Source of the DNA: an uncultured Phycisphaeraceae bacterium
Lineage (GTDB): Bacteria; Planctomycetota; Phycisphaerae; Phycisphaerales; UBA1924
Length of the DNA stretch: 64,000 nt
Direction of reading: 5' to 3'
Assembly (NCBI GenBank): GCA_964451515.1
Contig: CAYVIJ010000001.1
Location: 212,975 to 276,974 of the forward strand
The translations under genes were made by a program, and so were the position numbers. The notes below the pieces were generated by a model. That model did not search any database. It had not been told where the DNA came from and saw only the letters and a program-made list of their open reading frames with translations. Positions 13,858-42,689 of the stretch are shown one piece after another (positions within the stretch are counted from its first letter, which is position 1; each line of letters starts with the position of its first letter).

Positions 13858-16479
13858 ATGCGACGGAACGCTGGCAACCGAATCAGGGTTTTGACAAGTC
13901 GCCTCGCCCGGCCCCTGGCCGTTCTGGCGGCCTGCGTTTTCGTGACTCCTCGCGTCGCCTCGGCGCCACCGGACGCGATGCTCGAGTATCGGGATATCCC
14001 CGAGCCGACACGCGTGGTCGTCGAGATGGAGTCGGATCTGCTCGCGTACGACCTGTGCTGGTCCGACGATGTCGAGTCGGCGCGCGCGGCGCTGGCGCAG
14101 CGAATCATCAAAGAGGCGCCGGCCGCGGGGCTCTTCGTCGTCGAGCTGCCGGAGCTTCCGGAGCGGTGGAGGCCGATCAGTCCACGCTCCATGCGGACCA
14201 TGGATGGCGCCCTCATGGATCGGCGGCGCATCGCCCGCGGGATGCGCACCTACGAGGAAGATCTCGAGGAGGCCCTGGTCGATGTGCTCGGTCGCGTTCA
14301 AGAAGCGCTGCCCGAGGCGATGATCGCAATCGAGGGTTTCGCGCCGCGCCGGAGCCGGACGGGTCCGCTCTATGAGTCGCTCGTGGACTCCTTCGATTAC
14401 ATCTTCGTCGATGAGAACTTCGAGAAGCTCTTCCGCCGGTACGAGCGTCGGCGCGACATGGCTTGGAAGATCGAGCGCGAGTTCGACTGGCTCGAGAGCT
14501 TCGGCTGGGGTGGCGCCAGGCCGCTCGTTCTTCGATACGCCGACAAGTGGGTCTTCGCGGCCTACGAAGAGCTCCCGAGCGATGAGGCGATCACCGCCCG
14601 CAGCGAGGACGAGCTGCTTGACGAGGCGCCGGAGGACTTCGAGGAGCACACCGATCAGTTGGCGACGAACGACCTCCCCAAGCCCGCCGGAATCGAGCCG
14701 CCGGATTTGGAGCCCATCCCGACCGACCATATCGCGGGCCGCGGGGGCGGCTCTCTGGCGCCGGCGCCGACAGGGGCTGAGCCGGCGGCGGCCGCGCCGG
14801 AGAACCCGTACGACCTGAACTCCGACGGCGCCGTCAATCAGGCGGACACGAGCATCGTCCTCGGCTCTTGGGGAACGAACAACCCGCTTGTGGACTTCGA
14901 CGGCAGCGGCGAGGTGGACGCGCATGATCTTGCGCTCATTCTGGGCTCCTACACCACGCCCGCAGAGCCCGAGCCGGACAAGGACCCGCCCGCCGAGACA
15001 GGAACAACGCTTATCGCAGGCGACGGCTTCAGCGGGAGCACGCCGCAGCCCGGTCCTGTCGGCTCGCTGACGCAGGCGGGCTTCGACGCCAAGGCGATCG
15101 CGCGCTGGGATGTCGTGCCCTACCAGACGGTCGACGAGGCGTTCGGCGTCGGCGTGGCGGCGTTTCACATGAACGGGATTGATCGCGTCGAGTTCTCGCT
15201 CGAGGGCGGTCCCTGGATGGCGGTCGAGGACGCCACGCTCAATCCGCGCACGGGCGTCGAGGAATACTGGATCAACTTCGATCCCGCGGAAGTCGAGGAC
15301 GGGCTGGTCGAGATCCGCGCGGTCGTCTATCCGACCACAGGAGAGCCGCGCGTGCTGGCCGGGCCGATCGAAGAGGAATCCCTCATCACGGGCGAACACT
15401 CGATGTTTGTCAACGGCAACGCGGGCGGCTCGCTGCCGGTCGAAATCGTGACGCTTGGGCCATCGGACGATCTCGCGGCGGCGATCGCGAGCACGCCCGA
15501 GGGCGGGGAGATCCACCTGGGGCCGGGCGACTATGACATCGCGGACATGCGGCGGGCGAGGAAGATGAGCCGCTGGCTCACGATTCGCCCGGCGCCGGGC
15601 GTGGCGCGGGAGCAGGTGCGCATTCGTCCTCCCTTCGAGGAGGGCCGCCGCTACATGGTGATCAAGGGCCAGCTCATCCGCTGGAAGGATCTGACCTTCG
15701 ATCTAGCGCGCATTCAGCGCATCGTTCCCCACCCTCCGACGAGCAAGCATCCGGGCGACTCGCACTGGTTCGATGGGTGCTACTGGACCGACACCAACGG
15801 CTGGGATCACACTTATCCCAGGAACATTCCGACGCCTTTCAACGGAAGCGGCGTCTGGTATTCGACGGATTCGGAGTATTTCGACACTCGCTTCGGCCCG
15901 ATGCGCCACCAGCTCGTCCGCGGCGCCGACATCAGGCGGATCAGCGGCGAGGTCTTCGAAGGCTCGCGGGTCGTGATCGACACCGACATCGAGAACGTCG
16001 ACGGCTCAATCCTTGAAAACGCTGTGCACACCGACATCGTTCAGTGGCATGACTCTCGCCGTCGGCGTATTGAGAACCAGATTCTCTACGGCGTCCGCGG
16101 CCAGAGTCTCTTCTCGCAGCACTTCTTCCTGCGGACCGGCGGCGGCGCGACGTACGAGGACATCGCCTTCGTCGACATCATGTTCAAGACGAAGGACGAG
16201 ATCCGCCCCAGCACAGGCCGCCCGCTCCGTGACCATACGCGCAGTCAGCTCTACTGCTTCAACGATCACGTGATCTTCCGCAACGTGCGATCCGACATTC
16301 CGCTGAACCTGCGCACAGCGGACACAGTTGGAAACCCGGACGAGGGCTACGTCGCCAGGAATGTGGTTTTCGAGAACTGCGGGTTCCCCGCCAAGACCCG
16401 GCAGCAACTGGTCGTGGAGGCGCCCGAGGGGATTCTCGCTCACAACGTGTTCGAGTGGACCTGGTGGGAGAATGAGTGA
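13858..16479 (+). CDS. Large secreted protein with dockerin-type Ca-binding repeats and a C-terminal putative beta-helix/carbohydrate-active domain
   Basis: The start was trimmed to ATG 13858, which has a GGGAGAAGG RBS. The signal peptide is MRRNAGNRIRVLTSRLARPLAVLAACVFVTPRVASA. There are two dockerin-like repeats (DLNSDGAVNQADTSIVLGSWG; DFDGSGEVDAHDLALILGSY). Confidence 0.6.
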   Translation: MRRNAGNRIRVLTSRLARPLAVLAACVFVTPRVASAPPDAMLEYRDIPEPTRVVVEMESDLLAYDLCWSDDVESARAALAQRIIKEAPAAGLFVVELPELPERWRPISPRSMRTMDGALMDRRRIARGMRTYEEDLEEALVDVLGRVQEALPEAMIAIEGFAPRRSRTGPLYESLVDSFDYIFVDENFEKLFRRYERRRDMAWKIEREFDWLESFGWGGARPLVLRYADKWVFAAYEELPSDEAITARSEDELLDEAPEDFEEHTDQLATNDLPKPAGIEPPDLEPIPTDHIAGRGGGSLAPAPTGAEPAAAAPENPYDLNSDGAVNQADTSIVLGSWGTNNPLVDFDGSGEVDAHDLALILGSYTTPAEPEPDKDPPAETGTTLIAGDGFSGSTPQPGPVGSLTQAGFDAKAIARWDVVPYQTVDEAFGVGVAAFHMNGIDRVEFSLEGGPWMAVEDATLNPRTGVEEYWINFDPAEVEDGLVEIRAVVYPTTGEPRVLAGPIEEESLITGEHSMFVNGNAGGSLPVEIVTLGPSDDLAAAIASTPEGGEIHLGPGDYDIADMRRARKMSRWLTIRPAPGVAREQVRIRPPFEEGRRYMVIKGQLIRWKDLTFDLARIQRIVPHPPTSKHPGDSHWFDGCYWTDTNGWDHTYPRNIPTPFNGSGVWYSTDSEYFDTRFGPMRHQLVRGADIRRISGEVFEGSRVVIDTDIENVDGSILENAVHTDIVQWHDSRRRRIENQILYGVRGQSLFSQHFFLRTGGGATYEDIAFVDIMFKTKDEIRPSTGRPLRDHTRSQLYCFNDHVIFRNVRSDIPLNLRTADTVGNPDEGYVARNVVFENCGFPAKTRQQLVVEAPEGILAHNVFEWTWWENE

Positions 16480-18119
16480 CGGCCGGACGCGCTGAATCCG
16501 AGAGCGCCGCTTCCTCATCGGCCGACGGGCCGGAGGACGGCCCTCCAAGCGAGCAGAGCGGAGCCCCCGCAACGGCGCCCAATGGCGCCGTTGCTTCTTC
16601 GCGCGCCCGGGATCCCGAGCGCGAGCTCGCCACCGACGATCTGCTCGATGACCTTTCCGGACGATCCGTCCGCGGCGGCGCGGTGACGATCGTCACCCAG
16701 GCGTTGAAGTTCGTCCTGATGCTGGGCTCGACGGCGATCCTGGCCCGCATTCTCACGCCCGCCGACTTCGGCCTCTTCGCCATGGTGGTCGCGATCACCG
16801 GCTTTGTCGCGAAGTTCAAGGACGCGGGCCTCTCGACGGCCACCATTCAGCGCGAATCCGTCACGCACGCGCAGGTCTCGACGCTCTTCTGGATCAACGT
16901 CGGGCTCAGCCTCGCCATTCTCGCCGTGCTCTCGGCGCTGGCGCCGGTCGTCGCCTGGCTCTACGGGGAGCCGCAATTGACGATGGTGACCATCGCGCTC
17001 GCGGGCACGATCGTACTGGGCGGGCTGACGGTGCAGCACCAGGCCATCCTCCGACGGCGCATGCGATTCACAACGCTCGCCTTCATCGAGATCGCGTCGA
17101 TCGTCTCCGGCGTTGGGGCGGCGATCGCGCTCGCCCTGCTTGGCGCGCGCTACTGGGCGCTCGTCGCCCAGACCGCCGCCATCGCGCTGGTCAACTGCGT
17201 CCTTGTATGGGTCTTCTCGCCCTGGCGTCCGGGCCTGCCACGGCGCGATTCGCAGGTGGGCGGCATGGTCCGCTTTGGCGGCGGCATGTCCGTTTTTCAC
17301 CTCATGGACTACGCCGTCCGCAACCTCGACAACGTCCTCATCGGCTGGTGGCTCGGAGCGACTCCGCTGGGCGTCTACTCCAAGGCCTATGGCCTGCTCA
17401 TGATGCCGATTCGCAACTTTAACGCGCCGATCGGCGGCGTGCTGACGCCGGCGCTCAGCCGCCTTCAGAACGATCCGGAACGCTTCCGCGGCTTTTTCAT
17501 TCGTGTGGTCGCCGGCATCTCCTTCGTCACCGTTCCCGTCGTCGCCTTCCTGTTCGCCGACGCGCGCAACGCGATCCTCACCGTACTCGGCGATCAATGG
17601 CTGGACGCCGTGCCCGTCTTTCGATACCTCGCGCCCGCCGCCTTCTTCAGCGCGGTGAACGTCGCGCCGACATGGCTGTGCCTGGCGCTCGGCAACTCCG
17701 GTCGCGCGATGCGGTGGGCGCTGGTGAGTGCGCCGCTGACGCTGCTCGCCGTCGCGATCGCCCTCCCGTGGGGCATCGAAATGGTCGCCCTTGCGTTCAG
17801 CCTGAGCTGGACGCCCGCGTTTCTTGCCTTCGTCGTCTACGCCGCCCATCGCACGCCCGTCCGCACGACCGACATCGCCCTCGCCATGGCGCCCGTCGCC
17901 GGCGCGGCGATCGTAGCCGCGGGCGGAGCGTGGCTCATCTCGCAGTGGAGCTCCGACGCGCTCCCCCCGCCGCTCGCCTTGCTTGTCAACGGCGCCGCGT
18001 TCGCTCCGCTCTATCTGGGCTTGTTCGTCCTTCTTGGCGGTCTGCGCGTGTTGCCGCTCAGGCGTGTCGCTGGACATCTTCTGAAAAGGCGAGGCGAGGC
18101 GGGAGCGCTTCTCGGCTGA
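16476..18119 (+). CDS. wzx: Polysaccharide biosynthesis flippase (Wzx-like, PST/MOP family)
   Basis: The body has about 12 TM segments and PST-family topology. The N-terminus has a 60-aa acidic extension. It is the first gene of the EPS operon. Confidence 0.75.
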   Translation: MTAGRAESESAASSSADGPEDGPPSEQSGAPATAPNGAVASSRARDPERELATDDLLDDLSGRSVRGGAVTIVTQALKFVLMLGSTAILARILTPADFGLFAMVVAITGFVAKFKDAGLSTATIQRESVTHAQVSTLFWINVGLSLAILAVLSALAPVVAWLYGEPQLTMVTIALAGTIVLGGLTVQHQAILRRRMRFTTLAFIEIASIVSGVGAAIALALLGARYWALVAQTAAIALVNCVLVWVFSPWRPGLPRRDSQVGGMVRFGGGMSVFHLMDYAVRNLDNVLIGWWLGATPLGVYSKAYGLLMMPIRNFNAPIGGVLTPALSRLQNDPERFRGFFIRVVAGISFVTVPVVAFLFADARNAILTVLGDQWLDAVPVFRYLAPAAFFSAVNVAPTWLCLALGNSGRAMRWALVSAPLTLLAVAIALPWGIEMVALAFSLSWTPAFLAFVVYAAHRTPVRTTDIALAMAPVAGAAIVAAGGAWLISQWSSDALPPPLALLVNGAAFAPLYLGLFVLLGGLRVLPLRRVAGHLLKRRGEAGALLG

Positions 18120-18575
18120 GCTGCGTGAATGGCATTCGTTCCAGAGAGAGCAGATTCGTTTCGGTCAAGAGCGCAGGCGAGGCTGACGCGGCGCGGGTGG
18201 CGTTCGACACCTCCGCCAAGGCTGCGCGTCACTTCGTATTCCAAGGCGCGAATCGGCGCCGCTTCCGTGCGCCCTGCGCGTTCCCGCGTCCCTTCGCCCG
18301 GTCCGGCGCCCGCGTCTGTGACGTTGGCGTCAATCGCGCCGGGGACGCTCCTTCGCCGGCGCTTCGGCGGTCGGCGCGTCTCGGTCGTGCAGGCGGCAGT
18401 GGGGAAGCGCGTGGCTGGGCGGGTCTCCGCGTGTGCTCTCAGGACTCGCGTTCGCCGACGGATAAGACCCGGCGGACCCGGCGCAGCGGCTTCCGTGCTC
18501 CACCAGAATGAGTCGGCTCATATGCTTTCGCCATTCGGACGATCATGCCGCCGGCGCCCCTTCGTGGAGACCGAG

Positions 18576-19241
18576 ATGAGCACGACTCAGGACCGCTCGA
18601 TGGTTCCGGGCAAAGCCCACTATTCAGCAGAATACATCGACGGCGGACGCATGTTCAGCTTCGCCCACCAGATCGCGACCGTGGCGTCCTTTCAGCCACG
18701 CTCCGTTCTCGAGATTGGGGTCGGGCCGGGGCTCGTGTCCGGGACGCTGCGCACAGTGGGGTTCGAAGTGGTGACAATGGACGTCGAGCCAGAGCTGGAG
18801 CCCGACGTGGTGGGATCGGTCACTGACCTGCCCTTCGAGGATGAGTCACAGGATGTGGCGTTGTGCAGCCAGGTGCTCGAGCATCTGCCGTGGTCGGAGT
18901 GTCCTGTCGCGCTCTCGGAGCTCCATCGGGTGTGTCGGCTCGGGTTGGTGCTCAGTCTTCCCGACATCACGGCGCTGTACGAGATTCGCGTCCGCGCGCC
19001 GATCGTCGGACGGATCGAGAAACAGTTCTCGCGCTCCCTTCGCACGACTGAGGCCTGGCGGCGCGAGCGATGGGAGCAAATGGGCCACTACTGGGAGATC
19101 GGCTATGAAGGGAGTCGACTCGTCGATGTGCGGCGGACGATCGAGAACGTCGGGTTCCGTGTGGATCGAATCTGGCGCGTGAGTGAGTTGCCCTTTCACC
19201 GCTTCTTTCGGCTCGAAAAACGATCCGAGAAAGCGAGCTGA
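18576..19241 (+). CDS. Class I SAM-dependent methyltransferase
   Basis: The start was trimmed to ATG 18576. The GxGxG motif is LEIGVGPGL, followed by an acidic residue and LPFEDESQDVALCSQVLEHL (Methyltransf_11-like). Confidence 0.7.
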   Translation: MSTTQDRSMVPGKAHYSAEYIDGGRMFSFAHQIATVASFQPRSVLEIGVGPGLVSGTLRTVGFEVVTMDVEPELEPDVVGSVTDLPFEDESQDVALCSQVLEHLPWSECPVALSELHRVCRLGLVLSLPDITALYEIRVRAPIVGRIEKQFSRSLRTTEAWRRERWEQMGHYWEIGYEGSRLVDVRRTIENVGFRVDRIWRVSELPFHRFFRLEKRSEKAS

Positions 19242-20203
19242 TGCGTCTGCCGGACTTCTTCATCGCGGGCGAGATGAAATGCGGCTCCACGACGCTCTGG
19301 GACATGCTCGCCTCCGATGGGCGCATCTTCTCGTCCCATGACAAGGAGCTGCACTTCTTCGCGAGCTACACCTATTTCGGCGGCTCGGGCCCCGACGCTC
19401 TGGGTGATCTGGACGCCTACGCCGCGCACTTCGCCGGAGCGAAGCCGGATCAGCTCTGCGGCGAAGCGACGCCGAATTACCTGTTCGATCTCAAAGCGCC
19501 GGAGCGCATCCGTCGTGTCGTCCCCGAGGCGCGCTTGATCATCATTCTGCGCGATCCCGTCGATCGCGCCTGGTCCCACTACTGGCACCAGGTCCGGCGC
19601 GGCTGGGACAAGCTCTCCTTCGAGAAGGCGCTGGAGGCGGAGCCCGGGCGGATCGAGACGGGCGATCTCCAGCAGCGCGACGCCTTCTCTTACCTGGCGC
19701 GGGGGCGGTATATCGAGAGCCTCGAGCGGCTGGAAGCGCAGTTCCCGCGCGAGCGGATTCTCATCCTGACCCTTGAGGAGCTGAAGACCGATCCGCTCCG
19801 CGAATTGGACCGCGTCTCGGTCCACCTCGGGCTGAGCCCGCCCATCGAGGCCCCGGGTCCGCCGCCACACCGCAACAAGGCGGACTTTCCCCGCTTCCCC
19901 GCCCTGGACCGCCTGATCCAGCGAGCCAAGCCGGCCGCTGCCGCCGCGGGGCCGCTGATCGAGGGTCTTGCCGCCGCCGCGGCCAAGGCGACGCGCCCCG
20001 TTCGCCGAAGAAGTGGCAGCGGATTGATGAAGCCCGCGACGCGCGACGCGCTGCGCGACGTCTTCGCCCGCTCCGACGCCGATCTCGCCGATCGGCTCGG
20101 CAGGCCCGTTCCCTGGCGTCGGATGGACGCCAAAGATCCGGAGAGGAGCACGACCGATGATCTCGATCGTTCTGGTGACCTGCAATCGAAGGCATCTGCT
20201 TGA
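19241..20203 (+). CDS. PAPS-dependent sulfotransferase
   Basis: The 5'-PSB motif is FFIAGEMKCGSTTL. The 3'-PB motif is IILRDPVDRAWSHY. Confidence 0.8.
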   Translation: MRLPDFFIAGEMKCGSTTLWDMLASDGRIFSSHDKELHFFASYTYFGGSGPDALGDLDAYAAHFAGAKPDQLCGEATPNYLFDLKAPERIRRVVPEARLIIILRDPVDRAWSHYWHQVRRGWDKLSFEKALEAEPGRIETGDLQQRDAFSYLARGRYIESLERLEAQFPRERILILTLEELKTDPLRELDRVSVHLGLSPPIEAPGPPPHRNKADFPRFPALDRLIQRAKPAAAAAGPLIEGLAAAAAKATRPVRRRSGSGLMKPATRDALRDVFARSDADLADRLGRPVPWRRMDAKDPERSTTDDLDRSGDLQSKASA

Positions 20204-20954
20204 GGCGTGCCTGAAGAACGTGCTCGGACGGCTCTCGGAGGAGACCGGCCAGATCGTCATCTGGAACAACGCCTCCGTCGACGGCACGCGCGAGCTCCTC
20301 GACGCCTTCGACGATCCCCGCGCACAAGTCATTCACAGCGAGGAGAACCTGGGCACGAACGCCTTCGCCCGCGCCTTCAAGCTCGCGCGGGGCGAGCACC
20401 TGATCGAACTCGATGACGACATCATCGACGCCCCGGAGAACTGGGACCGAATCATGCGCGAGGCGTTCGACGCTCTCCCGGGCTTCGGTTTCCTCGCCGC
20501 CGCCTGCGTTGACGACGGCAAGAGCGTCGCGTCTGAGATCATGTATCGCCGCGATGCGCACAAGTACACGCCGCAGACCATCAATGGCGTCAACATTCTC
20601 GACGGACCCACAGGCGGCTGGTGCTCCATCACTTCTCGCGAGGCGTACGAGAAGGCGGGCGGCTTCGTCGAAAACGAGAAATTCATCTTCTGGCAGGAGG
20701 ATGGCGCCTTTGTGAAGGCGCTCGCCGACGCGGGATACCGCTCCGCTGTTCTCGCCGATCTCAAGGTCTTCCATGCCTCCGGCCCCGCGTACTCTTCCCA
20801 CGAGTCCTTCGAGCAGGCGAAGGCCCGCTACTACCGGTGGCGCGACGCCAATCGCAACCGCCGAAAAGCCGTGAAATCCGCGCTGGAGCGCATCCCGGGC
20901 GTGCGGCGCCTGAACCAGAAGCATGGCTGGTGGGTCTCTGCCGCGGAAGCGTGA
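20157..20954 (+). CDS. Glycosyltransferase family 2
   Basis: The N-terminus is ISIVLVTCNRRHLLEACL. LDDD and a DxD region are present. It overlaps the upstream stop. Confidence 0.8.
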   Translation: MISIVLVTCNRRHLLEACLKNVLGRLSEETGQIVIWNNASVDGTRELLDAFDDPRAQVIHSEENLGTNAFARAFKLARGEHLIELDDDIIDAPENWDRIMREAFDALPGFGFLAAACVDDGKSVASEIMYRRDAHKYTPQTINGVNILDGPTGGWCSITSREAYEKAGGFVENEKFIFWQEDGAFVKALADAGYRSAVLADLKVFHASGPAYSSHESFEQAKARYYRWRDANRNRRKAVKSALERIPGVRRLNQKHGWWVSAAEA

Positions 20955-22320
20955 GCCCTTCATCGCGGGGTGGACCGACGTGACTCGACGCGCGCTCATC
21001 ATCGCCTTCTTCTTCCCGCCCGACGGCGGAGGCGGCAGCCAGCGCTGGGCGAAGTTCTGCAAGCGGCTGCCGGCTCTCGGGTGGCAGCCCACGGTGCTCA
21101 CGCGTGCGCAGCCCGCTTCCCGAACCCAGTGGGACCCGGAGGACGAGACCCTCCTCGAGGATGTCGCCGCCGCCCGGATCCACCGCCTGGAGCCCGCGCC
21201 GGCGGCGGCGGAAGTCAATCTAAAGCTCAGCGGCGATGTCGATCCCGCGTGGCTCCGCCAAACGCTGGCGGAGGCCGGGCGTCTGTGCGCCGAAGAGACG
21301 TTCGATGTCATCGTACTCACGGCCCCCCCGTACGATCTTGCGCGTCTGGCGCCGGTTCTTGCGGAGCAGATCAGGATTCCAGTCGTGCTCGATCTCCGGG
21401 ATCCGTGGGCCTTTGATGGCGGCCGCCTCTTCTCGAGCGCCGCCGCCTGGCGGCGCGAGCGCGACGTCATGATCCGCGCTCTGGAGCGATGCGAGGGCGT
21501 CATCTTCAACACACCCGAAGCCCGCGCCGCCATCGAACGCGGGATCGGCGCGCGGGCTCGACGAGCGGTCGTCATCCCCAATGGCTACGACGTCGACGAC
21601 TTCACCGGGCTCGAGCCCGCGCCCCGAAGCGACGACGCATTTCGGATCGCGCATCTGGGAACGCTGCACTCCCGAGCGCTGTATGAGCGCCGCGGACCGG
21701 CGGGATTCGTGCGCAGGATTCGCCGCCACCGTCCCCAGCGAGTCGCCCCGGCCGGACGCACGCTTCGCCCGCTGCTGAAGGCGATCCACGCGCTGCGGCG
21801 CGAGGGCGACCCACTCGGAGAGCGGGTTCGTGTACGGGTCCTCGGGCCGGTCGACGAGGCGACGGAGCGGTGCGTCCGCGATTCGCCCACGCCTGATGCG
21901 GTCGAGCTGATCGGTTATCTGCCCCACGCTGAGGCCCTTCGTGAAGCCGCCTCGGCCGACGCGCTCTTCCTGCCGCTCTACGGACTGCCCGCGGGCGAGC
22001 GCGCGCGGATCGTTCCCGGGAAGACCTATGAGTACCTGGCGCTAGGTCGGCCGATCCTCGCCTGCGTTCCGCCCGGCGACGCTCGGGAGCTGGTCGAGCG
22101 CACAGGGCGTGCGGCCTGCGCCGATCCCTGCGATCCACACGGGATCGCCCAGGCGATCCGAAGACTCCAGACGATGGAGGCGCCGCCGCCGGGGTGGCCT
22201 CCGGAGTGGATAAGCCGCTTCGAGCGGGGGGCGTTGACGCGCGAGCTGTCGGAGTTTCTCACGATGGTCGCCTCGGGTTCGCAAGCGCGTGAACGCAGCG
22301 AGAGGCTGGGGGCGGCATGA
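20923..22320 (+). CDS. GT-B glycosyltransferase (GT4-like); the start may instead be GTG 20980
   Basis: The C-terminal Glycos_transf_1 motif is FLPLYGLPAGERARIVPGKTYEYLALGRPILAC. Confidence 0.7.
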   Translation: MAGGSLPRKREPFIAGWTDVTRRALIIAFFFPPDGGGGSQRWAKFCKRLPALGWQPTVLTRAQPASRTQWDPEDETLLEDVAAARIHRLEPAPAAAEVNLKLSGDVDPAWLRQTLAEAGRLCAEETFDVIVLTAPPYDLARLAPVLAEQIRIPVVLDLRDPWAFDGGRLFSSAAAWRRERDVMIRALERCEGVIFNTPEARAAIERGIGARARRAVVIPNGYDVDDFTGLEPAPRSDDAFRIAHLGTLHSRALYERRGPAGFVRRIRRHRPQRVAPAGRTLRPLLKAIHALRREGDPLGERVRVRVLGPVDEATERCVRDSPTPDAVELIGYLPHAEALREAASADALFLPLYGLPAGERARIVPGKTYEYLALGRPILACVPPGDARELVERTGRAACADPCDPHGIAQAIRRLQTMEAPPPGWPPEWISRFERGALTRELSEFLTMVASGSQARERSERLGAA

Positions 22321-23663: not shown

Positions 23664-23671
23664 TCGGAGCG

Positions 23672-25319: not shown

Positions 25320-25363
25320 CCACCCCGCACGGGAGGACCGATGAAGCCGGGGGAGTCCGCGCC

Positions 25364-28725: not shown

Positions 28726-28742
28726 GTCGGAGAAAGAGCTGC

Positions 28743-30474: not shown

Positions 30475-30492
30475 GGCAAGGTTCACATCCCG

Positions 30493-32318: not shown

Positions 32319-32320
32319 CG

Positions 32321-33010: not shown

Positions 33011-33044
33011 GGAAGCGAGTCCGGAGATTGGGGAGCAGCGCCGA

Positions 33045-35300: not shown

Positions 35301-35303
35301 GCC

Positions 35304-36758
35304 GTGAGCAGATCAGCCGTGCAACAAGAACGCGCTCAGCCTCGGATCTCGCGGGCCGCGGACGCCGAACGCCTTTGGGGCCTCGACATTCGCGATCTGC
35401 ATGATCGCCGATGGGCGACGCGGGGCGTGCAGGTCGTCCGCCCGCAGGGCGCGCCCCCGGACCCCAAAGGCCCTGACCTCTTTCTGCTCGTGGATCGCCA
35501 CGACCTGCTCGACTTCTCCATCGAGCCGCATGTCAAACGATTGAACTGGCTGCGCTCGGGCTTGATGCGGCTCCGCGTCTCCGATGCGCGCAGCCGATAC
35601 GAAGAGCGCGTGCTCGCCGACGACGAGGGCCGCTTCCAGGGCTTCCGGCGCGTCTACGACTCGCGCCTGGGCGGCGTGCGCCGAACCGCCATCACTGGCA
35701 GTCGCCGCCTCGCCGAGCGATGGCGGCAGACCGACGGTGGCTTCGCCTCCTGGCGCGCCCTCGCCGGCGGACGCCGAGGCGACAGCCAGGCCCCACGCTC
35801 CGCCTCCGGGGTGGCGAAGGGCGTCGTCTTCTCGGCGGCTTCCGACGTCGCCTCCGCCCGTTTTCTGGAGCATCTTCAGCGCACCTGGTCGGCGCCGTCG
35901 GCCGCGATCGACGGCGTCTACGCCTTTCGTCCCGGCGTGCTGCTGCACGAATCGGTGGCGCTGCCCGAGCGCGTCCGTCTTGTCGGGCCCGTCTGGATCG
36001 GCGCCGGCGCCCGTCTGCAACCCGGGCAGGTGCTCATCGGGCCGCGCATGCTGCCGGACGACGAGCACGCCGCCCCTGAGCAGCGCCCCGTCGACTGGGG
36101 CTCCTTGAGTCAGCCCGGATGGCGCCTGGCGCCGCGCTCTCGCGGCTGGCGCTTCCGCTCGACGAAACGCCTCTTCGACATCGTCTTCAGCGCGAGCGTC
36201 CTGGTCGGCACGCTTCCGCTCTATCCCTTCGTGATCATGGCCATCTTCATGGAGGACGGCTGGCCGCCCTTCTTTGCGCACCGCCGCCAGACGATCCGGG
36301 GGCGCGAGTTTCCCTGCCTGAAGTTCCGCACCATGTTCAAGAACGCGGAGCAGATGAAGGCGGAGATTGCGGCGCGCAACCAGGCGGACGGTCCTCAGTT
36401 CTTCATTGACGACGACCCCCGCATCCTGCGCTGTGGCAAGCTCCTCCGTCGGTTCCAGATCGATGAGTTGCCGCAGTTCTGGAATGTGCTGCTGGGCCAC
36501 ATGAGCGTCGTGGGGCCGCGTCCCAGCCCGGATAAGGAGAATCAGTTCTGTCCCTCCTGGCGCGAGGGGCGTCTGAGCGTCCGTCCGGGCGTGACCGGAT
36601 TGTGGCAGGTGCGACGCACCAGGCAGCCCGAGACCGACTTTCAGGAGTGGATCCGATACGATCTGGAATACGTCCAGCATGAGAGCTGGCGGCTCGATCT
36701 CTGGGTCATCCTGAAGACGATCGAGAAAGTCTTCCGTGGTGAGGATCCCTCGACATGA
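35304..36758 (+). CDS. Polyprenyl-phosphate sugar-phosphate transferase (bacterial sugar transferase, WbaP/PglC-like catalytic domain) with a roughly 290-aa N-terminal extension
   Basis: The C-terminal 200 aa carry KFRTM, DELPQFWNVLLGHMSVVGPRP, PGVTGLWQ and a single re-entrant helix. Confidence 0.8.
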   Translation: MSRSAVQQERAQPRISRAADAERLWGLDIRDLHDRRWATRGVQVVRPQGAPPDPKGPDLFLLVDRHDLLDFSIEPHVKRLNWLRSGLMRLRVSDARSRYEERVLADDEGRFQGFRRVYDSRLGGVRRTAITGSRRLAERWRQTDGGFASWRALAGGRRGDSQAPRSASGVAKGVVFSAASDVASARFLEHLQRTWSAPSAAIDGVYAFRPGVLLHESVALPERVRLVGPVWIGAGARLQPGQVLIGPRMLPDDEHAAPEQRPVDWGSLSQPGWRLAPRSRGWRFRSTKRLFDIVFSASVLVGTLPLYPFVIMAIFMEDGWPPFFAHRRQTIRGREFPCLKFRTMFKNAEQMKAEIAARNQADGPQFFIDDDPRILRCGKLLRRFQIDELPQFWNVLLGHMSVVGPRPSPDKENQFCPSWREGRLSVRPGVTGLWQVRRTRQPETDFQEWIRYDLEYVQHESWRLDLWVILKTIEKVFRGEDPST

Positions 36759-39700
36759 CCAATCGCGCCAAAAAGCGCCTGACGCTCCTCCTCGTCGTCT
36801 TTGCGGCGCTTGGGCTTCTCGTCGCCGGCGGCGCCGTGATCCGCGCTGTCCAGCAGCAGCGCATCACCGAGCGCGCGCTCGAGCGCGGCCTCGCGGCGCT
36901 TGAATCGGGGGATGACCGCGGGGTCGTCCGTCATCTCGGCGTCTACCTGAACCGGGCGGAGAACGCGGGAGAGGAGGTCGATCCCGAGCTTTGGATCAAT
37001 TGGACGGACGCCCGCTGGGCGGTCAAGGACGACGAGGGCCAGCACATCGCCCAGGCCATCGTCGGGGCGCGCCGGGCGCGCGATCTGCTGCCCAGCGACC
37101 CCCGCCCCTACGAGCAGCTCATCGAGATCTACAGCCGCATCGGGCAATACACCGAGCTGGCGGACGCCGCTGACCGGCTTCTTGAGATCGATCCCGACAA
37201 CTTCCGGGCTCGCGCCGCGAAGATCGCCAGCGCCCGCGCCACCGGCGATCTCGACGCCGCCATCGAGGAAGCGCGCCTGCTCGTCGACGCCCACCCCGAC
37301 AGCGTTGAGGCTCACCAGCTTCTGCTTTTTCTGCTCGATGAGGCGGGGCGTCCTCCGGAAGAGCTAGTGGGGATCATGGAGGCCGCCGCTGAGGCGCATC
37401 CGGACAACCCGGACTTCGAGCTGCTGCGCGCGCGGACGCATGTGCTCCTCGACGATCGCGATGCCGCCCGGCGCTCCGCCGAGCGTGCCCTCGCGATGAT
37501 CGAGGAGGCTCCTGACGCCGACATCGGGGTCCTCCTCCGCGTGCTCGATTACCTGGGCATGGACGAGGAGGCGCGACGCTTGCTGGAGACGCGCGTTGAG
37601 CTTGCGGAGCCAGGCGATCCGATCTTCGTGGTCGCCGCCGAGCGAGCGTGGAAGGCTGGCGAGACCGATGAGGCGCGCGCGATCCTGGACGCCGGCGCTC
37701 CGACGCTCGATGACGCTCCCTCCGCAATGCTGGGCTGGATCGCACTTTTGAACGCCGGCGCCGATGGCGACGCCGAGCGCTTCGAGGCCGCCCGGGCTCG
37801 CCTAGACGAGGTGGCGACAGCCGAGTCGGCGGATTGGCTCGCCCTCGTCGATGCGCGCGAGGCGCTCGAGGACGCCCGTCCCTCCGACGCCCGTGAGATC
37901 GTTGGCGAGCGCGCGCCAGCGGGCGGTCCCGAGACGCGCCCGCTGATGCAATACGCCCTCGCTCGCGCCGCAAAGACGCTGGGGGAGAGGCGTCGCGCTA
38001 TTGAACTGCTCGAGCCGCTTGCGGCGCGCGAGCCGCGCTGGGTCATCCTCGCCGTCGATCTCGCCGAGTTGTTGCTCGGGGAGGATCGCCTGACGCAAGC
38101 CTTTGGCTACGCCATCCGGGCCTATCGGGCGGCGCCGCGCCCGGGCGTGGTCATCCCGACGCTCGCGGAAGTCGCGGCGCGCCTTCTCGAGTCCGGACGC
38201 GCAACGCCCGCGCAACGGGACCTGGCGATCGAGGTTCTGACAGAAGCGGCGGAGAAGCTCTCCGATTCCGGCGAAGCGCTGGCGCTCGCCGCCCGCGGCC
38301 TCGCGGCCACCGGGCGGTACAACGAGGCGCGCGCTCTCACGCAGCGGATCGCCGAGCAGCGGCGACAGATTACCGCGGACTCGTACGCCCGTCTCGCGGA
38401 GTTGTCGCGCCGGCGCCAGTGGGGGCTTGAGTCAGCGCTCACGGAGGCCGTCCGGGCCGCCTCGCCCGAGGATCCCGCGACGCTCTACGCCCTCGCGATC
38501 GAGGCAGCCAATGCGGGACGCCCAGAGGATGGCGAGCGCCTGCTCGACGACGCCCTCGGGCGCGCCGGCGAGAGCGCCTCGCTCGAGCTGGCGATCCGTC
38601 GCGCGCTCTATCTGGACGCAATCGGCGATCCGGAGGCGCGGGAGACGCTGCTCCAACTCGCGACCCAGAACGAGCGCTCGGTTCCCGCGCAACTCGCCGT
38701 CCTTGAAGCTTCCTCGACTTGGGTGGATGAGCCGGGCATCGCCGCCGCCATTGAGCGCCTGCGGGCCTTGACTGGCGATGAGGGCGTCGCGTGGAAGCTG
38801 CATGAGGCTCGCCGCCTGCTCACGTTCGAGCCCTCGGAGGAGAACGCGGCGCGCGTCGAACTCCTCCTCGCCGAGATCATCAACAACGATCGGCGGTCTG
38901 CGGAGGCCCGGCGCATCGCCGCCGCCGCCCGTCTGGAGCTTGGCGATGTCGAGACGGCGACGCGCTACCTCCGCGAGGCGGTCGCCGCGCGCCCGGGCGA
39001 TGCTCGCCTGCAACTCGAGCTCGTGAATCTCCTGCGTGAAGCGGGCGATACGGAGGCCGTCATACGCCAGCTCCGTGAGTTCGCCGCCATCGGTGATCTT
39101 TCGCGCGATCTTCGGCAGGTGCGCGGACGGCTGCTTATGGACTACGGGCTCTGGGATCCGGCGCTCGAGGATCTCTCCGCCGTCGCCGAGGATGGCGACT
39201 GGCGCGCCTCGCTCGATCTCGCGAGACTGCACGCTCGCCGGGGAGAGACAGCTCGCGCGCGCGCCATCTACAACAGTCTGCTCACGGAGCCTGATCCCGA
39301 CCCGGCGGCGCTGGAAGCCGCCGCGAACTTCTTTGGGGGTCTGGGCGAGGTTGATCGGGGACAGGCGATCCTGATGCGCCTTCCGGAGGAAGGTGATCCC
39401 CCCAGAGTTCGGCGCATCGCCTCGTACCTGGCGCGATATGGCCTCTCATCCGAGGCGGAGCGCCTCTTCCGACGCCATGCGGAGGAGGACGGGACGCCCG
39501 AGGCGTGGAACGCGCTGGCGCGGTTCCTTGTCCGTCAGGGCGCGATCGAGGACGCACGCTCGGCGTTGGAGCAAGGCTTGGCGCTGGCGCCGGAGGATCA
39601 CGATCTGATCGCGACGGAGAACGTGATCCGCCTGCGCATGGGGCTGCCCGTCGATCCCGACGCCCTCGCGGACGCCATGGCGGTGGGGGGGGTGGATCCG

Positions 39701-40942
39701 GACGATCCCGCCGCCATCGCGTTGCGGAAGGCGATCGCCTCCCTCTCCGAAGCGCCGGACGATCGCTCGGCCTACATCGAGGCTCTGCGCGAGGTGACGG
39801 AGACGTACCCCTCCTTTTATCCCGCGTGGGATCTGCTGGTGAAAGCTCTTCGGTCGGTCGCAAAGCTCGATGAGGCGATCTCCGTCGCGCAGCGGGCGGC
39901 CGCCGCTCTGCCCACCGATCCGCGCCCCGCGCGTCTGCATGCGGAGGCCTTGATCGCCTCAGGCGACGCCCAGCGCGCGATCGTGGCCGCTCGGAGCTGG
40001 CGCGATCGCTCGCGGGACAACCCGCTCGAAGCGGATGTGGCGATCGCCTCGCTGGAGCTGTCGCTCAATGAGCCCGAGCAGGCTCTCGAGCAGCTCCAGC
40101 CGCACCGCGAGCGGATCGTCTCCCAGGGAGACGCCCATCCCGATCGACTGGCGCTGCTGGCCACGGCTCTCGCTCGCGCCGGGCAGGCGGAGAGGGCGCA
40201 CGAGCTGCTCTGGCCTCGAGCGCAGCAGGATCCCCGATGGGCGGAGCGCTATTTCAACGTCGCGCTCTCGCAGCGCGACACGCCCTCCACCTTCGTGCGC
40301 TGGCTGTCACGCATCGAGCCTGCGATTGTCTCGACGCCGATGGGCCGGCTTCGGATCGGGCAGGCGTGGTACGAGTTCGGCCTCATTCACGAATCCGCCG
40401 AGGCGCATCGCCGAGCCATGGACATTCTGGAGCCCTCGCTGGACGATGAGCAGATGGCGCCGGTCGCCGCCAAGCTCATCGCCGGCTCCGCCGAGCAGAT
40501 CGGCGAGCATGTGGTCGCGGAGAGGCACTATCGCCTTGCGATCCAGCTCGATCCGGACGACCCGGCGGTGATGAACAATCTCGCCTATCTCATCCTGCGA
40601 ACGAATGGCTCCGGCGAGGAGGCTTTGTCGCTCGCCGAGCGGGCGGTGGAGGCCGCGCCGGATGTGCCCGTCTTTGTCGACACCCGCGCCTCAGCGCTGC
40701 TCGCACTGGGACGGCTGGAGGAGGCCCGTGAGGAGTTTCGGCGCGGGCTCGAGCTCGATCCGGGAGATGTCGACCTTCTCCTCGGGCTGGCGGAGACGGA
40801 GCTGCGCCTCGGCGCCGTCGAGGCCGCTACGGTCGCGCTGGAGCGGGCGGCGGCGCGGGGTCCGAGAAACGCGGCGCAGCGCGAAGAGCTCGCCGATCTC
40901 GGGAGCCGGCTTGAGAAGGCTCGCGCACGGTCCGACGAATGA
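36755..40942 (+). CDS. Very large TPR-repeat protein (PEP-CTERM-system PrsT-like scaffold), 1395 aa
   Basis: The start overlaps the upstream stop (ATGA). It has an N-terminal signal anchor. Dozens of 34-residue A/L/R-rich TPR-like repeats run its whole length. Confidence 0.8.
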   Translation: MTNRAKKRLTLLLVVFAALGLLVAGGAVIRAVQQQRITERALERGLAALESGDDRGVVRHLGVYLNRAENAGEEVDPELWINWTDARWAVKDDEGQHIAQAIVGARRARDLLPSDPRPYEQLIEIYSRIGQYTELADAADRLLEIDPDNFRARAAKIASARATGDLDAAIEEARLLVDAHPDSVEAHQLLLFLLDEAGRPPEELVGIMEAAAEAHPDNPDFELLRARTHVLLDDRDAARRSAERALAMIEEAPDADIGVLLRVLDYLGMDEEARRLLETRVELAEPGDPIFVVAAERAWKAGETDEARAILDAGAPTLDDAPSAMLGWIALLNAGADGDAERFEAARARLDEVATAESADWLALVDAREALEDARPSDAREIVGERAPAGGPETRPLMQYALARAAKTLGERRRAIELLEPLAAREPRWVILAVDLAELLLGEDRLTQAFGYAIRAYRAAPRPGVVIPTLAEVAARLLESGRATPAQRDLAIEVLTEAAEKLSDSGEALALAARGLAATGRYNEARALTQRIAEQRRQITADSYARLAELSRRRQWGLESALTEAVRAASPEDPATLYALAIEAANAGRPEDGERLLDDALGRAGESASLELAIRRALYLDAIGDPEARETLLQLATQNERSVPAQLAVLEASSTWVDEPGIAAAIERLRALTGDEGVAWKLHEARRLLTFEPSEENAARVELLLAEIINNDRRSAEARRIAAAARLELGDVETATRYLREAVAARPGDARLQLELVNLLREAGDTEAVIRQLREFAAIGDLSRDLRQVRGRLLMDYGLWDPALEDLSAVAEDGDWRASLDLARLHARRGETARARAIYNSLLTEPDPDPAALEAAANFFGGLGEVDRGQAILMRLPEEGDPPRVRRIASYLARYGLSSEAERLFRRHAEEDGTPEAWNALARFLVRQGAIEDARSALEQGLALAPEDHDLIATENVIRLRMGLPVDPDALADAMAVGGVDPDDPAAIALRKAIASLSEAPDDRSAYIEALREVTETYPSFYPAWDLLVKALRSVAKLDEAISVAQRAAAALPTDPRPARLHAEALIASGDAQRAIVAARSWRDRSRDNPLEADVAIASLELSLNEPEQALEQLQPHRERIVSQGDAHPDRLALLATALARAGQAERAHELLWPRAQQDPRWAERYFNVALSQRDTPSTFVRWLSRIEPAIVSTPMGRLRIGQAWYEFGLIHESAEAHRRAMDILEPSLDDEQMAPVAAKLIAGSAEQIGEHVVAERHYRLAIQLDPDDPAVMNNLAYLILRTNGSGEEALSLAERAVEAAPDVPVFVDTRASALLALGRLEEAREEFRRGLELDPGDVDLLLGLAETELRLGAVEAATVALERAAARGPRNAAQREELADLGSRLEKARARSDE

Positions 40943-40996
40943 ATGCGATGCGCGCTCGCGGCGCTCGCGCCTGAACCGCAGACCGGAGGTCCGATC

Positions 40997-41776
40997 ATGA
41001 AGGGCGTCATTCTCGCAGGCGGCATGGGCACGCGGCTCAACCCGCTCACGCTCGTCACCAATAAGCACCTGCTCCCCGTCTACGACCGTCCCATGATCAT
41101 GTATCCCATTCAGACGCTGCTGAATGCGGGCGTCCGCGAGATACTCATCGTCACGGGAGGCGAGCACGCGGGCGACTTCCTCAAGCTTCTCGGCAACGGC
41201 AAGAGTCTGGGGATCCGCGAGCTGCACTACACCTACCAGGAGGGCAACGGGGGCATCGCCGACGCCCTCAAGCTCGCCGAGGACTTCGCCGACGGCGGAA
41301 AACTCATCGTCATGCTGGGCGACAACATCATCGAGCGCAACATCAACAAGGCGGTCGGCGATTTCTTCTGCCAGCCCTCCGGCGCCAAGATCATGCTCAA
41401 GGAAGTCGATGATCCGGAGCGCTTCGGCGTCGCGGTCGTGGAGGAGGGACGCGTGGCGCAGATCCTCGAAAAGCCCGAGAATCCGCCGAGCAACTTGGCC
41501 GTCACGGGCGTCTACATGTACGACAACGATGTCTTCGACATCGCCTCAACGCTCGAGCCCTCGGCCCGCGGCGAGCTCGAGATTACGGACGTCAACAACG
41601 CCTACATCGAGCGCGGCGACTTGACCTACGACGTCCTGGAAGGCTGGTGGACCGACGCAGGCACCTTCGAGAGCCTGCATCGCGCGGCGACCCGTGTCGC
41701 CCAGGGCGGCGCCAACCATGTCGCGGCGGGCGAGCCCGGGGCCGAGAGCCCCAAGGCCGCCAGCGCCGCCGGCTGA
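40997..41776 (+). CDS. rmlA: Glucose-1-phosphate nucleotidyltransferase (RmlA-like, short form)
   Basis: The start was trimmed to ATG 40997, which has a GGAGG RBS. The N-terminus is MKGVILAGGMGTRLNPLT, and GDNII follows. Confidence 0.8.
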   Translation: MKGVILAGGMGTRLNPLTLVTNKHLLPVYDRPMIMYPIQTLLNAGVREILIVTGGEHAGDFLKLLGNGKSLGIRELHYTYQEGNGGIADALKLAEDFADGGKLIVMLGDNIIERNINKAVGDFFCQPSGAKIMLKEVDDPERFGVAVVEEGRVAQILEKPENPPSNLAVTGVYMYDNDVFDIASTLEPSARGELEITDVNNAYIERGDLTYDVLEGWWTDAGTFESLHRAATRVAQGGANHVAAGEPGAESPKAASAAG

Positions 41777-41936
41777 CGCCCCGGACTGTCCGAAAACTCG
41801 ATTCTTTCGTGATTTCCATTCTCTCGCTGGACGCTCCGCCGGTGCGGTGTACCTGTGAGTGTGTAGCCACTTCGAACGCGGTTGAAGCGGCGCACGGACG
41901 ATCCGCAGAAGAAAAGAACACCGGGAGAGTCAAGAG

Positions 41937-42689
41937 ATGAAGAATGGAACACTGTTCATTGCGGGCGTCGCCGCCGCAGCCTGCACCGCTGGCGCCGCCC
42001 AGGCCGCCATCGCCGTAGTCGATGGGCTCGGAGGTCCGCTCGGACTTCAGTCCGGGTCGATGCCGAGTCTATTCGGCGCGTCGTCGCCGAGCTTCACCAA
42101 CACCGCCCTCGCCTCTATTCACACCGAGCTCAACGCCGACGGCGTCGCCACCGACGGCAAGGTCACGGGCATGCTTGTCGAGACGGGCGACGCCGGCCTC
42201 GCGTGGGTCGTGCTGATCGACGACGAAACGGCGCCGGGTGGTTTCAAGACGCTGGATTCCAGCATCGCCTTCGGAACGCAGGCGTCCTCCGACAAGGTCG
42301 AGTTCATCAACGACTCCGGCGACAACACGCCCGTCCAGGACCCCGGAACCGGCTTCAAGAGCGTCAACGGCGGCTTCGAGTGGGATTCCAATTCCAAGGG
42401 CGATGCCTTCGGTTGGGCGAACCTCGAAACCGGCGACTTCATGACCTTCTCCTTCCAGCGCATCTTCGACGACCTGCCGACGTTCCCAGGTCTTGACAGC
42501 GAGGACACATTCCAGTTCGTCACATGGGGCGACGGCGCCTGGGAGCTGGCTGACGGCTTTGGCGAGTTCACCCCCAACAACCAGTTCTCTTACAGCGTCA
42601 CCATCGCCGTGCCGCTGCCGACCGGAGCGGGTCTCGGGCTTGCGGGCCTCGCGGGCTTCGCCGTCATCCGCCGCCGGCGCACGCTCTGA
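41937..42689 (+). CDS. Secreted PEP-CTERM-like anchored protein
   Basis: It has a signal peptide. The C-terminal tail is VPLPTGAGLGLAGLAGFAVIRRRRTL. A GGGAGAG RBS is upstream. Confidence 0.65.
   Translation: MKNGTLFIAGVAAAACTAGAAQAAIAVVDGLGGPLGLQSGSMPSLFGASSPSFTNTALASIHTELNADGVATDGKVTGMLVETGDAGLAWVVLIDDETAPGGFKTLDSSIAFGTQASSDKVEFINDSGDNTPVQDPGTGFKSVNGGFEWDSNSKGDAFGWANLETGDFMTFSFQRIFDDLPTFPGLDSEDTFQFVTWGDGAWELADGFGEFTPNNQFSYSVTIAVPLPTGAGLGLAGLAGFAVIRRRRTL

Follow-up and report, generated by a model that had tools for sequence, protein, structure and literature searches.

The 64,000-nucleotide stretch analysed here (the window; positions 212,975 to 276,974 of contig CAYVIJ010000001.1, assembly GCA_964451515.1) comes from an uncultured Phycisphaeraceae bacterium. 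It contains a real Phycisphaerae surface-polysaccharide locus that carries a lineage-specific exosortase cassette and its own substrate gene, and is ordinary in kind. Very probably it is a Wzx/Wzy-type polysaccharide biosynthesis locus built around this cassette. The polysaccharide and exosortase genes were packed densely over about 29 kb, from 13687 (or 16476) to 42689, and 23 genes were placed between 13687 and 42689, 22 on the plus strand and one on the minus strand. A preliminary description, made from the letters alone, had listed the genes of a Wzx/Wzy pathway together with those of an exosortase sorting system. Its list was largely right, as family searches supported nearly all the annotations.

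The GC content of the window was about 67%, and therefore the raw lists of open reading frames (ORFs) were rich in spurious frames. Genes were chosen by a filter on GC at the third codon position (GC3), followed by family searches against the curated cutoffs of Pfam and NCBIfam. The gene lengths between 28743 and 42689 were reproduced by a second, independent caller on a Logan contig of identical sequence (412, 168, 315, 293, 229, 751, 479, 1395, 259 and 250 aa), with later starts for two genes (35319 for the priming transferase and 40997 for the RmlA-like gene).

The exosortase gene (31437–32318, plus strand) scored above the cutoffs of the general models PF09721 (179.2 versus 25.7 bits) and TIGR02602 (129 versus 105.55), on which its earlier identification held, and above that of the TIGR04178 signature (58 bits; cutoff, 23). 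It fell below every named subtype model, including XrtA (TIGR03109; 125.5 versus 208) and XrtD (113.7 versus 400), and belongs to a subfamily without a name. The protein is polytopic, with at least five long hydrophobic segments, spanning about eight helices. C191 (in AEACNGMR), R236 and H256 were invariant across 25 exosortase homologues. This agrees with the proposal of Haft et al. for the catalytic Cys, Arg and His residues of exosortases (PMC1569441).

Only 2 bp past the exosortase stop codon begins the gene of its partner, an EpsI-family protein with a single N-terminal transmembrane (TM) helix (32321–33010, plus strand). The EpsI assignment stood on PF11984 (47.2 versus 26.1) and not on TIGR02914, for which the score of 29.3 bits was below the cutoff of 42.8. 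The family had a conserved motif, DMxGHYPxxCYPxxGW.

The gene upstream of the exosortase (30493–31440, plus strand) encodes a degenerate nucleotidyltransferase of 315 aa with a left-handed beta-helix, similar to GMPPA and eIF2B-gamma. Pfam recognized only the C-terminal beta-helix. LLAGGLRPSPL stands in place of the canonical GGxGTRLxPL loop. A profile of 30 family members matched GDP-mannose pyrophosphorylases, GMPPA and eIF2B-gamma; over its N-terminal part it aligned to GMPPB residues 32–151 (E 1.3e-4). The loss of the GGxGTRL loop and the match of the profile bore out the degenerate state noticed in the preliminary description. From the likeness to inactive GMPPA and eIF2B-gamma we infer a regulatory or scaffolding role. 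The stop codon of this gene overlaps the exosortase start (ATGA). We know of no counterpart of it among the described XrtA accessory genes.

Downstream of EpsI lies the gene of a PCP-2a-like (Wzc-like) chain-length protein (33045–35300, plus strand) with a C-terminal P-loop ATPase domain (AAA_31, ParA and CbiA). Its TM segments, at residues 43–65 and 437–460, flank a coiled-coil periplasmic domain, and the ATPase domain carries a GDGKT motif. The position of the exosortase between the nucleotide-sugar genes and this Wzc-like gene was as described previously. The next gene (35304–36758, plus strand; alternative start, 35319) encodes a priming polyprenyl-phosphate sugar-phosphate transferase of the Bac_transf family (PF02397, 194 bits; TIGR03025, 232 bits, below 295). 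It is followed by the gene of a 1395-aa tetratricopeptide repeat (TPR) protein (36755–40942, plus strand), anchored at the N-terminus by a TM segment at residues 5–33, with no lipobox Cys. Many TPR families matched this protein. PrsT had been proposed as a check on it, and the TIGR02917 (PrsT) score was 167 bits versus a cutoff of 312, so the TPR part was supported and the protein is PrsT-like, not an equivalog. An RmlA-like sugar-1-phosphate nucleotidyltransferase gene follows (40943–41776, plus strand; start possibly at 40997; PF00483, 200 bits; TIGR01207, 236 bits, below 360). No histidine kinase or sigma-54 regulator of the PrsK/PrsR type was found among the window ORFs scanned.

The exosortase substrate encoded in cis (41937–42689, plus strand) had a signal peptide and a C-terminal tail (AVPLPTGAGLGLAGLAGFAVIRRRRTL) consisting of VPLP, a TM helix and RRRR. 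This is the PEP-CTERM architecture of signal peptide, C-terminal motif, TM helix and basic cluster. Against VPLPA-CTERM (TIGR03370; cutoff, 25.35), the substrate scored 21.5 bits at full length and 26.2 bits with the 45-aa tail alone. The corresponding scores against PEP_CTERM (TIGR02595; cutoff, 16) were 13.7 and 16.6 bits.

Homologues of the exosortase numbered in the hundreds (55–66% identity, about 288 aa) and were annotated only generically. Those with taxon names were from metagenome-assembled genomes (MAGs) of Phycisphaerae or Planctomycetota. Related loci were retrieved through an EpsI alignment scan of the GTDB species representatives, which gave 150 relatives. The best 80 of the 150 were almost all from Phycisphaerales, Phycisphaeraceae or Tepidisphaerales, including the complete genome CP159477.1. 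The closest EpsI among the relatives was 57% identical, and the genome of the window itself was not in the set. The retrieval yielded 88 loci, 47 of which, each from a species representative, had full 10-kb flanks.

All 47 full-flank loci had the genes of the degenerate nucleotidyltransferase and the exosortase, the Wzc-like gene and that of the priming transferase. With EpsI and the TPR protein added, the core was complete and in order in 38 of them, and the TPR protein was seen in at least 38. The degenerate nucleotidyltransferase gene lay directly upstream of the exosortase gene in 74 of the 88 loci and in each of the 47 full-flank ones, and was usually coupled to it. Less constant among the 47 were the dehydrogenase (26), the GT1 glycosyltransferase (21), PssD/E (20) and the GT2 glycosyltransferase (19). 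The least constant genes were the RmlA-like gene (16), the cupin (11) and the Wzy-like gene (9, within the 10-kb flank). The upstream glycosyltransferase block varied between genomes. These counts cover the 10-kb flanks; the sulfotransferase, Wzx and the first methyltransferase lie beyond them. The cassette is conserved across Phycisphaerales and Tepidisphaerales. Such conserved synteny ruled out a chance co-location of exosortase and polysaccharide genes. It also upheld the tie between the two that had been claimed, as opposed to an independent insertion of the exosortase genes.

Some of the retrieved loci stood apart. Three, from MAGs of Planctomycetota and Phycisphaera sp. (L056, L058 and L059), had the degenerate nucleotidyltransferase gene surrounded by two or three exosortase-like ORFs, and in L056 and L059 an upstream protein had a canonical GIPEPGS...RRRR tail, with a true PEP. 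These variants suggest that some relatives have an additional exosortase system, of the PEP type. One locus (L046) was labelled "Bacillota bacterium MAG104", while nearly all the others were from Phycisphaerae or other Planctomycetota and a few had no taxon name. This label is probably a binning error and not a true occurrence.

The substrate was conserved in position. In other genomes, homologues with 35–87% identity occupied this same end of the cassette. Because these proteins diverge fast, a word-based search for homologues of the substrate detected no more than 7 relatives. Tail-bearing genes were found by a scan of all the retrieved loci for a pattern of P-x-P, TM helix and Arg. In about 38 loci, one or two such genes lay directly downstream of the TPR or RmlA gene. 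For the 47 full-flank loci the count was at least 26, a lower bound as the flank ends there. All the tail-bearing proteins had signal peptides, and their mature domains varied between loci. Anchored on P-x-P, the consensus of the tails was [IV][IV]PLP[STG]xAG[LM]A...RRRR. Leu took the middle position of P-x-P in 31 of the 40 clade tails, and Glu was never found there. At E <= 0.1, 27 of 39 tails matched the C-termini of known PEP-CTERM families. A search upstream of 28 substrate genes for a sigma-54-like TGG-N9-10-TGC motif gave one match, at chance level, and none in the window.

A second candidate substrate of 266 aa (1440–2240, minus strand) also had a signal peptide and a tail (IPTPGSVVCLGVAGALAALRRRRG), with the pattern IPTPGS...RRRRG. 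It aligned with the substrate family over the tail only, at 20% identity. The P-x-P, TM helix and RRRR tail of this protein, which had been described as PEP-CTERM-like, was thus present; the gene is on the minus strand and not linked to the cluster. A tRNA-Ser(GCT) gene on the same strand (1284–1373) is 66 bp away from it.

The locus was compared with several known systems. Exosortase (EpsH) genes are nearly always found among extracellular polysaccharide (EPS) genes, and genes of the PF02397, chain-length and GT1 families cluster with them (PMC1569441). The same model of a Wzx/Wzy pathway with an exosortase was presented for the zooglan and Sphingomonadales clusters (epsSMASH preprint, bioRxiv 10.64898/2025.12.21.693542). 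The placement of the exosortase among biosynthetic genes had been considered the least textbook part of the window. This view was not upheld, because the family was first recognized by just this placement (Haft 2006; PMC1569441) and the zooglan and Sphingomonadales clusters have been described.

The window resembled the XrtA/EpsH EPS loci (Methylobacillus methanolan, Zoogloea zooglan and Sphingomonadales) in having an exosortase with an adjacent EpsI inside a Wzx/Wzy-type cluster, a Bac_transf primer, a chain-length/ATPase protein and a large TPR protein. Also shared were substrates with a signal peptide and a motif-TM-Arg tail, and a sizeable intergenic gap ahead of the substrate gene. On the other hand, the XrtA and PrsT models were below cutoff here (125.5 versus 208 and 167 versus 312, respectively), PrsK/PrsR were not found among the ORFs scanned, and no sigma-54-like motif was found upstream of the substrate genes. 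The motif was [IV]PLP instead of PEP, and no Wza-type exporter was found in the locus. The degenerate nucleotidyltransferase was a constant upstream partner here, and the chain-length protein and the ATPase were fused, without a Tyr cluster.

The XrtD/VPLPA-CTERM system (TIGR04152 and TIGR03370) was also similar in some respects. The tail in the window starts with VPLP, VPLPA-CTERM was the best-scoring sorting model, and the exosortase and EpsI each matched the corresponding half of the XrtD model. However, XrtD is a single fusion of 486 positions, whereas here there are two genes, and the scores of the exosortase (113.7) and EpsI (24.3) were far from the cutoff of 400. Of 39 clade tails, 7 matched TIGR03370 at E <= 0.1. 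In the literature searched on exosortases in Phycisphaerae or Planctomycetes, we found no description of this exosortase clade. What is new is a clade that passes the general exosortase model and no named subtype model, with a PLP motif and a constant degenerate nucleotidyltransferase. This novelty is modest.

The preliminary description had further proposed a single, translationally coupled operon on one strand. This was contradicted by a minus-strand gene (24420–25319) that interrupts the plus-strand series. It encodes a rhamnosyltransferase-like glycosyltransferase (PF11316 Rhamno_transf, 106 bits) and has a normal GC3. Its 3' end overlaps the methyltransferase gene 23660–24526 convergently by 107 bp, and it is divergent from the next gene (25364–26365), with a gap of 44 bp. 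Two related loci (L013 and L022) had the same minus-strand gene in the same orientation and in the same slot between the Wzy-like and GT2 genes. Therefore 24420–25319 is a real and inherited feature. In both of these loci the minus-strand gene was present and the methyltransferase at that place was absent, which suggests that the Methyltransf_24 gene may have been inserted later than the minus-strand gene. A plus-strand ORF in the same region (24594–25367), which the preliminary description must have included in its count, was rejected as a gene, as it had no family match and an atypical GC content at the codon positions (0.79/0.49/0.66). The strong PF11316 match on the opposite strand also ruled it out.

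The claim that the genes are linked throughout by ATGA or GTGA overlaps likewise did not hold. Overlaps of this 4-bp type were seen at 7 of the 22 junctions. One junction had a 1-bp overlap and four had longer overlaps of 14–47 bp, which depended on the choice of start. Gaps of 0–34 bp were found at eight junctions, two flanked the strand switch, and one was a 160-bp gap ahead of the substrate gene. With the minus-strand gene and the 160-bp gap, the cluster would comprise at least two or three transcription units, not one operon. The predicted units are 13687 (or 16476)–24526 on the plus strand, 25319–24420 on the minus strand and 25364–41776 on the plus strand. The substrate gene (41937–42689) is possibly its own transcription unit. 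Rfam and tRNA scans found no RNA element in the cluster; tRNA-Ser (1284–1373) and tRNA-Gln (52611–52682) were their only matches in the window.

Upstream of the minus-strand gene, the cluster contains the flippase, the decoration enzymes and part of the glycosyltransferases, all on the plus strand. The Wzx/MOP-family flippase (16476–18119) matched PF13440 (295 bits) and PF01943 (123 bits), as well as NF007773 (MOP flippase) below its cutoff (196 bits), and had 11 hydrophobic segments. It is preceded by a gene (13687–16479) for a secreted-looking protein of 930 aa with a weak dockerin-like calcium-binding motif (Dockerin_1, 19 bits, below the cutoff of 22.9). Family searches detected no domain in it beyond this sub-threshold match. 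The likely start of this gene is later, at a signal-peptide-like sequence (MRRNAG...VASA). Its stop codon overlaps the wzx start by 4 bp (GTGA), and the two genes are translationally coupled. A relative with 27% identity adjoins Wzx and a Wzy-like gene in one of the related loci (L031). The 930-aa protein may be a polysaccharide-processing enzyme.

The flippase gene is followed by those of a class I SAM-dependent methyltransferase (18129–19241; PF08241, 45 bits, and PF13649, 37 bits, both above cutoff) and a carbohydrate sulfotransferase (19241–20203). The latter was confirmed by scores above cutoff for PF13469 (51 bits) and PF00685 (44 bits), and both motifs for binding 3'-phosphoadenosine 5'-phosphosulfate (PAPS) were intact (5'-PSB, GEMKCGSTTL; 3'-PB, RDPVDRAWS). 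It matched a bacterial sulfotransferase in the PDB (3RNL, E 7e-28), and the heparan-sulfate 3-O-sulfotransferases at about 1e-12. A metagenome scan with this protein gave 10 loci, mostly on contigs shorter than 3 kb. In two of them, homologues with 48–57% identity adjoined Wzx or Wzy-like genes. None of the 10 showed whether an exosortase is present close by.

Sulfotransferases in bacterial polysaccharide clusters have been documented for cyanobacteria (synechan xss of Synechocystis; PMC8205485). In the part of the literature seen, they were also reported for Vibrio and Cobetia (capsules), Pontiella (exopolymers) and Actinoplanes. As in synechan xss and the other sulfated clusters, a PAPS-type sulfotransferase is located here inside a Wzx/Wzy cluster with several glycosyltransferases. 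As in xss, too, the outer-membrane polysaccharide exporter (OPX) is outside the cluster, here in the sense that none was found among the window ORFs scanned. In contrast, the clusters of Synechocystis, Vibrio, Cobetia and Pontiella belong to another phylum and are without an exosortase, and sulfation is only predicted here.

Two glycosyltransferase genes come next, a GT2 type (20157–20954; PF00535, 64.6 bits) and a GT4 type (20923–22320; PF13439, 50 bits; PF13692, 37 bits). The 47-bp overlap of the former with the previous gene is probably real, because the PF00535 domain begins at residue 3. A Methyltransf_24/CmcI-type methyltransferase, putatively for sugar O-methylation, is encoded at 23660–24526 (PF13578, 66.6 bits; PF04989, 39 bits).

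Beyond the minus-strand gene, the plus strand resumes with another GT2 glycosyltransferase (25364–26365; PF00535, 85 bits; PF13641, 67.5 bits) and the two halves of a split glycosyltransferase. The first half was PssD/Cps14F (Alg14-like; 26352–26810; PF08660, 32.8 bits; NF041549, 76.6 bits, below the cutoff of 110) and also matched the N-terminal half of WelK. The second was the catalytic PssE/Cps14G half (Alg13-like, Glyco_tran_28_C; 26807–27388; PF04101, 48 bits; NF041548, 94.9 bits, below the cutoff of 120) and also matched the C-terminal half of WelK. These matches agreed with the split Alg14/Alg13 enzyme proposed before. The arrangement of two adjacent, translationally coupled small genes that form two halves is that of PssD/PssE (Rhizobium), Cps14F/Cps14G (Streptococcus pneumoniae) and Alg14/Alg13, although both scores were below those of the PssD/PssE equivalogs.

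Three further genes lead to the cassette. A nucleotide-sugar 6-dehydrogenase for a uronic acid precursor (27385–28725) had all three UDPG_MGDP_dh domains and scored 400 against 190 for TIGR03026. It is followed by a GT1-family (GT-B) glycosyltransferase (28743–29981; PF13692, 47.7 bits; PF13524, 35.6 bits) and a small cupin similar to RmlC and to the C-terminal domain of CapF/WbcJ (29968–30474; PF14667, 30.8 versus 28.7; PF00908, 21.3 bits, below the cutoff of 27). The cupin is probably a nucleotide-sugar epimerase.

A candidate for the polymerase was a polytopic membrane protein of 448 aa (22317–23663, plus strand). It gave no match in Pfam (including Wzy_C, even at E <= 10), in NCBIfam or in a profile search of the PDB sequences. 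It belongs to a large family, with over 1350 homologues that carry no Pfam domain and come mainly from Planctomycetota. From an alignment of 30 homologues, AlphaFold gave a confident model (pLDDT 91.9, pTM 0.90). This was searched with Foldseek, and the top match was the O-antigen ligase WaaL (7tpg_B; E 7.7e-5, TM-score 0.49/0.54), followed by RodA, with no other significant match. On this model, the predicted fold places the protein in the Wzy/WaaL/SEDS class. A role as the polymerase would agree with the gene context, and a role as a ligase is possible. The full Wzx/Wzy pathway proposed earlier was thus supported for Wzx and the priming transferase; the Wzy assignment came from the fold only, and no OPX was found.

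The cluster is bordered upstream by purC (12151–13170) and downstream by minus-strand genes for an APH-family kinase and a bioA-like class-III aminotransferase (42766–45278), convergent with the substrate gene. This pair recurred in two related loci (L007 and L008), and in a third (L009) only the APH-like gene was detected, on the minus strand. Further downstream are an NAD-dependent epimerase/dehydratase (47956–48957, minus strand), a DegT-type aminotransferase (55056–56438, plus strand) and a phosphomannose-isomerase-like protein (56470–57477, minus strand). These sugar-nucleotide genes, 5–15 kb downstream, may feed the same or another glycan.

From what is known of these families, the locus would work as follows. 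The Bac_transf enzyme would prime polyprenyl phosphate, on which a repeat unit would be assembled by the five conventional glycosyltransferases and the PssD/PssE split transferase. The unit would hold a uronic acid, through the dehydrogenase, and probably also a 6-deoxy or otherwise modified hexose, through the RmlA-like transferase and the cupin. It would be decorated by the two methyltransferases and the PAPS-type sulfotransferase. Wzx would flip the unit and the WaaL/Wzy-fold membrane protein would polymerize it, while the two-TM chain-length protein with its P-loop ATPase domain would govern length and hand-off. As judged from the gene content, the polymer is probably acidic, sulfated and O-methylated.

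In parallel, the Sec-exported product of 41937–42689 would be held in the membrane by its C-terminal VPLP-TM-RRRR tail. The exosortase, together with EpsI, would cleave at P-x-P by means of the conserved Cys, and the protein would be released or transferred into the polysaccharide layer. Other proteins, such as the product of 1440–2240, would probably be processed likewise.

Several observations weigh against this scheme. The substrate tail has PLP in place of PEP and straddles the curated cutoffs. The Wzc-like protein scored below all the curated tyrosine-kinase and chain-length cutoffs (TIGR01007, 90 bits versus a cutoff of 108; TIGR03018, 84 bits; TIGR03007, 42.7 bits). There is no Tyr in its last 40 residues, and hence no C-terminal tyrosine cluster. 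Because this cluster is absent, the predicted protein cannot act as a classical autophosphorylating bacterial tyrosine kinase (BY-kinase). By fold alone, polymerase and ligase are not separable for 22317–23663. No OPX of the Poly_export/Wza type was found among the window ORFs scanned, which were the larger ones, and it may be encoded elsewhere in the genome. Scans for promoters and terminators between 13000 and 46000 gave counts not above those in shuffled sequence and were uninformative on the transcription units. The co-occurrence of exosortase and EpsI in the retrieved loci was partly by construction, as these were selected by EpsI, which leaves the counts of the other core genes unaffected.

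The variable decoration genes could stand beside the exosortase only incidentally. The locus would then consist of a conserved core (exosortase, chain-length protein and priming transferase) and a swappable, serotype-like block (sulfotransferase, methyltransferases and some glycosyltransferases). We regard this as a tentative possibility that deserves some weight. Conservation was limited to the core, and the upstream block differed between genomes. The minus-strand gene and the divergent gap part the sulfotransferase block from the exosortase block, and sulfotransferase homologues had Wzx or Wzy-like neighbours on contigs, albeit short ones, where no exosortase was visible. On the other hand, one Wzx/Wzy pathway needs both blocks, as Wzx and the Wzy-like gene are upstream and the primer and the chain-length protein downstream. 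With the pathway split over the two, the blocks must in this genome share one polymer as their target. Another explanation, which we consider improbable, is that the glycan is a cell-envelope polymer, either an O-antigen-like side chain of lipopolysaccharide or a capsule, and the substrate an unrelated surface protein. The WaaL-like fold of the membrane protein would fit this, as would the lack of an OPX among the ORFs scanned, the wide variation of the substrate domains between loci, and the finding that Wzx matched O-glycosylation and teichuronic-type flippases as well as any other. However, an ATPase-bearing chain-length protein and a Bac_transf primer typify EPS and capsule systems, not O-antigen systems with a plain Wzz. 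The strict adjacency of the exosortase, chain-length, priming transferase and TPR genes in 38–47 of the 47 loci also indicates a functional tie.

The same membrane protein enters into an assembly line for a glycoprotein or proteoglycan, in which a lipid-linked, possibly sulfated glycan would be joined covalently to the VPLP-tail protein. This could occur by exosortase transpeptidation onto the glycan, or with the WaaL-fold protein as an O-oligosaccharyltransferase or ligase. Such an outcome seems quite unlikely to us. It would accord with WaaL, a ligase and not a polymerase, as the best structural match of the membrane protein and with the lack of a match to the Wzy_C hidden Markov model. One or two dedicated substrate genes kept beside the cassette in many genomes, and the failure to find an OPX among the ORFs scanned, would also accord with it. 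Haft et al. proposed in 2006 that the cleaved protein is transferred to an unknown nucleophile (PMC1569441). Yet the WaaL, Wzy and SEDS folds are inseparable at a TM-score of 0.5, and the canonical set of Wzx and chain-length protein implies polymerization. The Wzy-like gene was found in only 9 of the 47 loci within the 10-kb flank, and so is not a core partner of the exosortase, and direct evidence is lacking for an exosortase acceptor of any kind. In a specific form, to which we give little credence, a Cys-acyl intermediate of the exosortase would transfer the VPLP-tail protein onto the nascent sulfated, uronic-acid polysaccharide or its lipid-linked precursor. The degenerate nucleotidyltransferase would be a gate that senses sugar nucleotides, by analogy to GMPPA or the large subunit of ADP-glucose pyrophosphorylase. 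If this were true, a compact locus with one or two dedicated substrates could reveal the long-unknown exosortase acceptor.

The preferred reading, a Wzx/Wzy-type locus built around a Phycisphaerae exosortase cassette, leaves the accepted picture unchanged. It is of use for annotation and does not amount to a discovery. A sulfated acidic polysaccharide is predicted for this group, whose members are known more for breaking such polymers down. Much of exosortase biology still rests on inference, including the fate of the cleaved proteins and their link to the polysaccharide. The locus is a well-delimited, phylum-specific version of the system, with one or two substrates in cis. It merits a dedicated subfamily model, and the cassette could serve as a simple test system.

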